Under the pieces are notes generated by a model. It did not search any database and was not told the origin of the DNA. It saw only the letters and a program-made list of their open reading frames with translations. Made by a program: the position numbers and the translations under genes. A DNA stretch of 23,163 nucleotides, taken from Desulfobacterales bacterium (GTDB taxonomy: Bacteria; Desulfobacterota; Desulfobacteria; Desulfobacterales; YD0425bin50). Shown one piece after another: positions 3,385-4,242 of the stretch. Positions within the stretch are counted from its first letter, which is position 1. Every line of letters begins with the position of its first letter. The stretch is taken from positions 1 to 23,163 of the forward strand of contig JADGCZ010000052.1 of the NCBI GenBank assembly GCA_015228675.1, given 5' to 3'.

Positions 3385-4242
3385 TTGAATATGAACGATA
3401 TATCTTATAATCCTCTTGTGGCTCCACATTATTGTGGTAAAATACTTACCGGAAATTATAGTGAAGCGTTAAAATCATATGTAACGCACTGTATTACGTG
3501 TTATCACGCTTTTGATCAAACTACCAATCCTTGCATTTCCTATATTTCAGCATGGCATAACGGAGAAAAAACGATTTGGTATGAATTTACCGGAAAACGT
3601 CTTATTGAGCTTTTAAAGTGTGATTATACCAATATCGCAGAATCATTTAAAAATAGTGTTAAAGACCGCAGGGAATATAGCAATCTATCAGTAGATACGC
3701 TTACTCAAGAAGAATTAACTCATCTTCGATATGGCCTTAGGGAAGAAAGCCAATTCAAAGGAATTGTGGATGCAATTTATAAAATTTCTAATCCAACCGG
3801 TCAACTCTATTGGTTAAAAGATCAAGCCAAAATTGAAATATTTTTACAGGATAATATCTGTTTATCTTTAGGTTGCCTTACACTGGTTACAAAAGAAATG
3901 GAAGTCGATGAACTTCGAAGACAAACTGAGCAAGAACGACTTCAAAAAGAAAAACTTCAAGCCATTATCGAAATGGCAGGCGCTGTATGTCATGAATTAA
4001 ATCAGCCTATGCAAGCTATTCTTGGATACGCTGAACTCTTAAAACTCGAATTAAATAAATCCTTTCATGAGTATGGCTACATAGAATCAATTTATAAACA
4101 AATTAGTATCATGGCTCAAATCACTAAAAAACTTATGGGAATTACCCGCTATGAAACTAAAGATTATTTAATGGGAAAAAAAATTATTGATATTGATAAA
4201 TCTTCAAAAAAAACAGTTAAGACCACAGATTCAACAGGTTAG
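3385..4242 (+). CDS. Histidine-kinase-like protein with an N-terminal sensor-like domain and a HisKA (DHp) domain but no HATPase_c catalytic domain
   Basis: The C-terminal half has a coiled-coil and a canonical H-box AVCHELNQPMQAILGYAELL plus a second DHp helix. The protein ends ~100 aa later with no N/G1/F/G2 boxes. The next gene starts 73 nt downstream, so there is no room for a split ATPase domain. Confidence 0.6.
   Translation: MNMNDISYNPLVAPHYCGKILTGNYSEALKSYVTHCITCYHAFDQTTNPCISYISAWHNGEKTIWYEFTGKRLIELLKCDYTNIAESFKNSVKDRREYSNLSVDTLTQEELTHLRYGLREESQFKGIVDAIYKISNPTGQLYWLKDQAKIEIFLQDNICLSLGCLTLVTKEMEVDELRRQTEQERLQKEKLQAIIEMAGAVCHELNQPMQAILGYAELLKLELNKSFHEYGYIESIYKQISIMAQITKKLMGITRYETKDYLMGKKIIDIDKSSKKTVKTTDSTG

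Follow-up and report, generated by a model that had tools for sequence, protein, structure and literature searches.

The 23,163-nucleotide stretch analyzed here (hereafter the window) is taken from the forward strand of contig JADGCZ010000052.1, part of a metagenome-assembled genome (MAG) of a Desulfobacterales bacterium. One of its open reading frames (ORFs), at 3385–4242, encodes a predicted signaling protein in which a PAS-like sensor is joined to the dimerization and histidine-phosphotransfer (DHp) hairpin of a histidine kinase and then to a short conserved tail, with no catalytic, ATP-binding (CA) domain behind it. The same absence marks every ortholog and relative that we collected, and the DHp and tail together appear to form a transmitter module in their own right. 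We propose that the ORF protein is a ligand-gated partner of receiver (REC) domains, serving as a phosphotransferase, a phosphatase or both, a reading to which we give an even chance of being correct.

A PAS-DHp protein that ends before the ATPase domain

GenBank lists the product as HQK77_09160, a 283-residue protein that begins at the ATG at 3391. Its only Pfam match is HisKA (residues 196–257, E = 7e-9, 36 bits against a cut-off of 26.9); HATPase_c is not matched even at E 0.1, and neither is Hpt (PF01627), the window's sole Hpt domain sitting in a hybrid kinase at 11852–13927. NCBIfam models of AtoS, LvrB, CreC, VirA, TtrS, FixL and similar kinases match partially, through their DHp regions and all far under cut-off, and a profile search of PDB sequences returned kinase DHp regions only (LvrB, FixL chimeras, ThkA, CckA, ZraS and HK853).

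An AlphaFold2 (AF2) monomer model built with 106 homologs (mean pLDDT 80) shows a PAS-type sheet of five strands over residues ~50–168, interrupted by a disordered insertion at 102–123, with pLDDT above 90 over most of the sensor domain. A continuous helix (residues 170–222) that bears His203 follows, and after a turn a complete second DHp helix (228–254); the last 29 residues are modeled at low confidence. The top Foldseek matches of this model are the LOV-histidine kinases 8a6x and 4gcz/YF1 (E ~1e-8) together with other PAS/LOV proteins, and one ortholog (P0035) carries a precomputed PAS_3 match. The ORF protein is predicted to be soluble, with a PAS-like sensor that a single unbroken helix connects to the DHp hairpin, the short conserved tail coming last.

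These results bear out much of an original prediction made from the sequence alone, which had described an intact H-box and second DHp helix in a protein that ends without an ATPase domain 73 nucleotides (nt) before the next gene, and had anticipated a HisKA match with no HATPase_c match. The same prediction had suggested that Cys/His-rich motifs in the N-terminal 170 residues could bind a metal or cofactor. The motifs are present (HYCGK, residues 15–19; CITCYH, residues 36–41), but Cys17, Cys36, Cys39 and His40 vary freely among 26 orthologs, and we reject such a site. The sole nearly invariant Cys or His of the N-terminal domain in those orthologs is Cys79, and by AF2 and Foldseek the region folds as a PAS/LOV-like domain.

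A conserved stop codon argues against local truncation

Given that the source is a MAG, the protein might be regarded as an ordinary PAS histidine kinase that was locally truncated, turned into a pseudogene or misassembled. A hidden Markov model (HMM) of the CA domain, built from 26 kinases of the related loci and run with filters off over all six frames of the window, matched only 11443–11817 and 12761–13102, which are the CA domains of the window's two complete kinases; no hidden or frameshifted ATPase, nor any remnant of one, lies near the ORF in any frame. The next start, the TTG at 4316 of a pyridoxal phosphate (PLP)-dependent decarboxylase of the diaminopimelate-decarboxylase type, comes just 73 nt after the stop codon.

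A search over 5.8 billion proteins returned more than 100 orthologs of 263–337 residues (most 270–285), 34–51% identical over their full length and every one HisKA-only; those with a named source come from Desulfobacterales or Thermodesulfobacteriota MAGs. Across a 26-sequence ortholog alignment the stop position is the same and the motif MAGAVCHE.NQP is invariant as a whole, as are T247, Y256, T258, Y261, I267 and D269, which we report with the tail. The stop is thus common to more than 100 orthologs and, as described below, to the whole module family, including 82 of 82 relatives, as would be expected of the consistently CA-less orthologs that the original prediction had set against a local accident. 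Frameshift or truncation is effectively refuted and, as an explanation, hardly credible. From the sequences at hand, a CA domain appears never to have been part of this protein within its lineage, and because its anatomy and its relatives both lack the ATPase domain, the ORF protein should be unable to phosphorylate itself.

DHp and tail as a family of their own

A scan of one genome per species identified 229 relatives, of which we examined the best 80 loci and took from these 82 genome-encoded relative proteins. Full-length orthologs occur at only ~16 loci, the remaining loci matching residues ~178–275, that is, the DHp and the tail. All 82 proteins end 0–22 residues past the tail. Pfam assigns HisKA to 79 of them, PAS to ~31, REC to 24 and GAF to 11, with single cases of 7TM, SBP_bac_3, dCache, PilZ and Hpt, and lists HATPase_c for none of the 82. 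When 1.84 billion cluster representatives were searched exhaustively with HMMER for the 110-residue module, about 1,340 clusters (50% identity) came out at E ≤ 1e-10; among the best 150 clusters, 146 end within ~20 residues of the match, and three of the four exceptions run on into PilZ. In the searches made here the family is seen almost solely in Desulfobacterota. The inputs fused to the module (PAS, REC, GAF, dCache/HAMP, 7TM and SBP) are those of real kinases, some members being transmembrane dCache-HAMP-PAS or periplasmic-binding-protein receptors, so that the module is the sole output of bona fide receptors. DHp plus tail therefore has the appearance of a discrete family that makes up a whole transmitter module by itself.

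The family is also set apart by its scores and by its residues. Within the fetched loci, the window module gives at least 78 bits with members, 73 and 48 with two tandem CA-less paralogs, and at most 31 with CA-containing kinases. The family H-box, EMAGAVCHE(L)NQP, reads EMAGAVCHELNQP in the window protein and has a cysteine immediately before the histidine (H-1); this Cys is present in 100% of the 82 relatives and, counted over the same loci, in 87 CA-less H-boxes versus 0 of 24 H-boxes of CA-containing kinases. Invariant across the 82 relatives are A198, G199, A200, C202, H203, E204, Q207 and P208. His203, Glu204 (H+1), Gln207 (H+4) and Pro208 are kept even in paralogs with unrelated inputs, a mark of strict selection indicating that the phosphoryl chemistry has probably been retained. 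Positions 211, 213, 215 and 216, which we assume to be the receiver-specificity positions after the histidine, vary among paralogs, and convergence of all paralogs on one receiver is not indicated.

The tail, with the signature ITRYETKDYxxGxKIIDID (also IT.YETKDY..G.KIIDID), is nearly invariant and leads directly to the C-terminus or, rarely, to PilZ; in the window protein it reads ITRYETKDYLMGKKIIDIDKSS and is followed by 11 residues. It aligns without gaps to the segment LLDFSRLERKSLQINREKVDL of HK853, where we read helix 2 as ending and the DHp-CA linker as leading into the first CA strand, and it matches the corresponding stretch of the window hybrid kinase at 11852–13927 in the same way. 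Because of this alignment, the shared ends, the score gap and the H-1 Cys, the family seems to descend from a FixL/NtrB-type kinase that was cut short long ago, just inside its CA domain, in a form that became fixed, gained its Cys-His signature and radiated.

Two further observations concern the domains that accompany the module. A PilZ domain of the cyclic di-GMP (c-di-GMP)-binding type follows the tail in P0145, P0238, P0224 and one of the 82 genome loci, at the position that the CA domain occupies in a kinase. The sensor domain is itself portable, being fused elsewhere to HD-GYP (P0116), to GGDEF (P0119) and to a HATPase_c-containing core (P0118); the H-box of this last protein, of 439 residues, reads GIAEDLNQ, with Glu replacing the phospho-acceptor His, a complementary kind of degenerate kinase. 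A search with the sensor domain by itself gave 2 hits and was uninformative.

The H-1 Cys and the tail invite an explanation in which the DHp has been repurposed, Cys202-His203 and the tail forming a redox-, metal- or partner-binding site that would signal by regulated binding rather than through phosphoryl groups. Neither element has a role in the canonical mechanism, and the confinement of the Cys to CA-less H-boxes, the near-invariance of the tail and the PilZ domains that can come after it are all in keeping with such a site. The full ancestral H-box HE.NQP nevertheless stays invariant, and the dedicated receiver genes that follow several members (see below) point to phosphoryl traffic; on balance we hold a repurposed DHp to be rather unlikely.

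Receivers and kinases beside the relatives

Genomic context was drawn from 1.15 Mb of DNA around 86 loci. This DNA contains five copies of a single-domain receiver subfamily (128–134 residues, members 53–71% identical) that ends in ERWK, and all five lie directly downstream of CA-less DHp + tail genes (Table 1); the 'ERWK' receiver makes a candidate for the module's cognate partner. At locus L076 the operon order is CheA, CheY, CheX, a REC-DHp-tail protein and REC. Large REC-PP2C(SpoIIE)-RsbW-like kinase-STAS fusions are found 3–39 nt upstream of REC-DHp-tail genes at three other loci (L035:7349–9586, L036:1924–4884 and L042:7391–9640), and because these fusions are immediately upstream the module is also tied to partner-switching components.

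The two closest orthologs of the window protein (P0007 and P0010, at L081 and L086) share a gene order of phosphoglucomutase, a 948-residue GAF-PAS hybrid kinase with a C-terminal REC, and the ortholog, with kinase-ortholog gaps of 1 and 29 nt; no Hpt was detected in the L081 kinase, the sole copy scanned. The unannotated N-terminus of this kinase (L081:5153–7999, residues 137–210, YIITWEKAPSLIWKRF) gives a weak second match, at 26% identity and E 0.007, to residues 10–84 of the adjoining ortholog (L081:8001–8846, sensor motif YITAWEEEAKEIWYEF), and the two may share a related sensor module.

Genes of carbon reserves recur beside orthologs, with PhaC (polyhydroxyalkanoate synthase) downstream at three loci (L010, L011 and L015), glycogen phosphorylase downstream at two (L005 and L009) and phosphoglucomutase at the two loci just described, a pattern that is suggestive but weak. 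The window has a phosphoglucomutase gene of its own (19439–21094, 715 bits to that of L081), 15 kb from the ORF on the other strand. A divergent tetraheme cytochrome c3 gene lies upstream of the ortholog at L006, L083 and L084, and a PLD-type enzyme encoded upstream also figures among the ortholog contexts.

Complete kinases are also found near the module, within three genes in ~16 of 81 module-family loci, although immediate same-strand adjacency, at ~8% of loci, does not clearly exceed the local kinase density (35 CA domains in 1.15 Mb). Translational coupling to such kinases is seen in some relatives, the kinase lying upstream at L081 and L086, overlapping at L053, and beginning 12 nt downstream at L050 and L066. 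Coupling of this kind would suit a protein that acts on a full-length kinase through its DHp, either poisoning the kinase as a heterodimer or having His203 phosphorylated by that partner through its CA domain. Ongoing phosphorylation of this sort would also fit the invariance of the pre-His motif EMAGAV and of the H+1 Glu, a residue specifically needed for kinase activity in HisKA kinases (PMC3510030). The DHp identities are low, however, at 23% to the operonic kinase of L081 and 23% and 24% to the two window kinases, which is a family-level resemblance only; the separation of family scores (at least 78 bits) from those of full kinases (at most 31) does not suggest shared dimer interfaces; the majority of members are orphans; and Cache/HAMP membrane receptors with the module as sole output would be odd for a mere inhibitor. 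We therefore judge a heterodimeric or trans-phosphorylated partner of a kinase to be unlikely, if deserving of serious thought. The original prediction had named the window's two complete kinases, at 10615 and 11852, as possible partners. Both are indeed complete (PAS-HisKA-HATPase_c and REC-HisKA-HATPase_c-REC-Hpt), and the role of phosphotransfer partner is compatible with the evidence, but these kinases as specific heterodimer partners are unsupported.

The invariant, kinase-specific H+1 Glu could also be read in another way, together with a tail in which each residue has a counterpart in the linker and first CA strand of both HK853 and the kinase at 11852–13927, and whose conservation exceeds what is expected of a vestige. 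The module would then be half of a split kinase, in which a separately encoded CA subunit, common to the many DHp + tail sensors in one genome, would bind to the tail and phosphorylate His203. Every neighboring CA domain, however, belongs to a complete kinase, including the apparent 'CA without DHp' neighbors, and a nearby CA-only partner gene is accordingly rejected; there is no stand-alone CA ORF in the 1.15 Mb around the 86 loci, where near-N-terminal CA matches are in ORFs cut by a contig end or in ORFs with ample sequence after the match. With PilZ taking the place after the tail in some members as well, a split kinase is quite improbable.

Proposed gating of receiver domains by a ligand

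In the reading that we prefer, that of a ligand-gated receiver partner, the ORF protein would dimerize through its DHp, and a ligand in the PAS domain would twist the continuous helix in a FixL/YF1-like manner. The change in the helix would then gate the contact of the His203 face with REC domains phosphorylated by other kinases. The DHp could accept the phosphoryl group and pass it on, as a relay station of the Spo0B/ChpT kind, or alternatively could promote receiver dephosphorylation, as isolated NtrB and EnvZ DHp domains do, each of which alone suffices for phosphatase activity (Zhu et al. 2000 and Kramer & Weiss 1999, as cited in PMC3510030). Because the H+1 Glu is invariant, we would favor a relay in which His203 is actually phosphorylated over a pure phosphatase, yet the two roles cannot be told apart here.

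Partnership with receivers is supported by the 'ERWK' RECs that follow DHp + tail genes, by the Che operon of L076 and by the hybrid kinase, with its REC, that precedes the closest orthologs; a similar functional idea has been proposed for an archaeal class of proteins (PMC5847659). Several considerations weigh on the other side. The partner is not encoded beside the ORF in the window, where no receiver or hybrid kinase adjoins it and the nearest is 5.4 kb away; most relatives are likewise orphans, and the counts of nearby and adjacent kinases given above are modest. The H+4 residue is Gln, whereas tested HisKA kinases need Thr or Asn at this position for phosphatase activity (PMC3510030), although Gln could be the ancestral residue, HELNQP being found in the FixL portion of the YF1-type chimera. 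The invariant H-1 Cys and the strongly conserved tail are left unexplained by any model. Finally, the literature yielded no characterized member of the class, only an archaeal census and a category in P2CS.

Other features of the window

The decarboxylase gene downstream of the ORF (4316–5596) is lysA-like, scoring 280 bits against TIGR01048, just below the cut-off of 297.9, and is followed after 9 nt by the gene of an 837-residue protein (5606–8119) with Major Vault Protein (MVP) shoulder and vault-repeat domains. The ORF had been predicted to stand at the head of a decarboxylase-MVP unit. A phmmer comparison of all window proteins with the 82 relative loci, however, found no homolog of the window's ABC transporter, decarboxylase or MVP-like neighbors; conserved linkage to these genes is rejected, and because no neighbor homolog stands beside any relative, the arrangement appears to be a local juxtaposition. 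The suggested functional tie of the ORF to the decarboxylase and MVP genes is thereby removed.

The spacer behind the ORF folds stably (4237–4330; minimum free energy -25.5 kcal/mol, z -3.3), and its stem-loops are given in Table 1. Rfam contains no RNA family that matches anywhere in the window, and a scan for promoters and terminators gave nothing above chance near the ORF. Upstream of the ORF (3295–3360), a 10-nt direct repeat, AATCATAGTT, occurs at 3295 and 3323 and a palindrome, GAAATTtattGAATTTC, at 3344; these could be operator sites, and we list them as candidates.

A signaling cluster 5.4 kb downstream comprises a stand-alone REC (9606–9965), a CheC/CheX-like phosphatase (9983–10594) and the PAS-HisKA-HATPase_c kinase (10615–11841), with the REC-HisKA-HATPase_c-REC-Hpt hybrid kinase (11852–13927) convergent with these genes. 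The pairing of REC and CheX recalls the L076 operon. As a Rosetta-stone partner of the ORF protein, the stand-alone REC is not convincing: its bias toward REC domains fused to the module is weak (median 44 versus 33 bits), and its identity to the receivers beside DHp + tail genes is 25–41%, including 25–28% to the 'ERWK' subfamily. Near the end of the window, a 195-residue ORF (21962–22549) carries a partial reverse-transcriptase domain (RVT_1) and may be a remnant of a group II intron or a retron.

Table 1. Coordinates of the ORF, its parts and the element behind it (window positions), and of the 'ERWK' receivers (locus positions).
Feature	Coordinates	Strand	Details
ORF of the CA-less PAS-DHp signaling protein	3385..4242	+	285 residues from TTG 3385; annotated start ATG 3391
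Divergent PAS/LOV-like sensor domain (residues ~14-170) with N-terminal cap helix and low-confidence insertion (102-123)	3424..3894	+	AF2, Foldseek
Signaling helix and DHp helical hairpin (residues 170-254)	3892..4146	+	AF2, Pfam, PDB-sequence profile search
H-box AVCHELNQPMQAILGYAELL (residues 200-219)	3982..4041	+	Cys202 codon 3988-3990; phospho-acceptor His203 codon 3991-3993
Conserved C-terminal tail RYETKDYLMGKKIIDIDKSS (residues 255-274)	4147..4206	+	Ortholog alignment; low confidence in the monomer model
Stable stem-loops straight after the stop codon	4237..4298	+	Inverted repeat 4246-4259 / 4275-4288; no U-tract
'ERWK' receivers	L017:1768-2154, L018:10311-10709, L034:3659-4060, L065:10284-10670, L076:10379-10783		

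Implications

The kind of protein described here, HisKA without HATPase, is already catalogued, and the ORF adds to it an uncharacterized member from Desulfobacterota; of the size of the family, its sharp signature and its linkage to receivers, the literature open to search gave us no account. CA-less 'histidine kinases' as a rule receive a kinase annotation, and the signaling networks drawn for sulfate reducers are probably wrong at such nodes. As a matter of annotation the ORF protein is ordinary, yet it offers a good entry to an open question, being compact, soluble and simple to express. It represents a very large family with features open to testing (His203, Cys202, the tail and, in related genomes, candidate receiver partners), and could show what a DHp does without an ATPase, whether as a relay station, as a sensor-gated phosphatase or in some new role.

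A bolder view, to which we assign a low probability, is that the DHp and tail with their Cys-His pair constitute a self-sufficient transmitter, widespread in Desulfobacterota, that can do without a kinase domain in the same protein. In each genome, dozens of sensors, transmembrane receptors among them, might then inject, relay or drain phosphoryl groups by way of 'ERWK' receivers, or the Cys-His pair and tail might impose control linked to redox state or, through PilZ, to c-di-GMP, or the sensors might share a trans-acting kinase. If so, the family would be a distinct branch of two-component signaling rather than a set of degenerate kinases.

Comparison with known systems

The best structural and sequence matches of the ORF protein are the FixL-type kinases and YF1. 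Like these FixL/DctB/NtrB-type (HELNQP) PAS kinases, among them the engineered LOV-FixL kinase YF1 (4gcz, 8a6x), it has a PAS domain, a continuous signaling helix and a DHp with the motif GEMA..(A)HELNQP; unlike it, they possess a CA domain, autophosphorylate, and have Ala rather than Cys before the His. Against the definition of a canonical sensor histidine kinase, the protein has the HisKA domain with its His and lacks the CA domain with its N, G1, F and G2 boxes.

Spo0B of Bacillus and ChpT of Caulobacter have a DHp-type four-helix bundle that cannot autophosphorylate and that shuttles phosphoryl groups between receivers. For the ORF protein a helical hairpin with the His and no CA domain is predicted, and several relatives of the ORF are placed between REC-bearing kinases and single-domain receivers. 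Spo0B and ChpT keep a degenerate, CA-like C-terminal alpha/beta domain and are not known to have a sensor domain. The ORF protein, by contrast, has a sensor and, past helix 2, just a 20-residue tail with no CA-like domain; no sequence relationship to Spo0B or ChpT was detected.

As the isolated DHp domains of EnvZ and NtrB demonstrate, a DHp that has no CA can be enzymatically active toward its receiver (PMC3510030), but these are laboratory fragments of bifunctional kinases with Thr or Asn at H+4, whereas the ORF protein is a natural form with Gln. RetS-GacS provides a precedent for one protein of the histidine kinase family regulating another through DHp contacts (PMC8498467); both of those proteins are full-length kinases, and no similarity or linkage of the ORF points to a specific kinase partner.

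The closest counterpart in kind is the class of archaeal 'nonenzymatic HK-like proteins', also listed as 'HisKA, no HATPase', of Archaeoglobi and Methanomicrobia (Galperin et al. 2018, PMC5847659), which corresponds to 'possible incomplete histidine kinase' in P2CS. For that class, phosphoacceptor/phosphotransfer or phosphatase roles have been proposed, and among the related archaeal REC-HisKA response regulators none has been experimentally studied (PMC5847659). The ORF protein belongs to the 'HisKA, no HATPase' class, having a sensor domain plus, at its C-terminus, a HisKA-like domain with its His, in an architecture that is conserved. In both groups, N-terminal PAS, GAF or REC inputs precede a C-terminal DHp of the HisKA type, whose His is conserved, and HATPase is absent; both occur in several copies per genome and are often misannotated as kinases. 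With the archaeal class compared by description only, the ORF family stands apart in its occurrence in Desulfobacterota and its very large size, and in a signature composed of the H-1 Cys, the tail ITxYETKDYxxGxKIIDID, an occasional PilZ domain and dedicated receivers.

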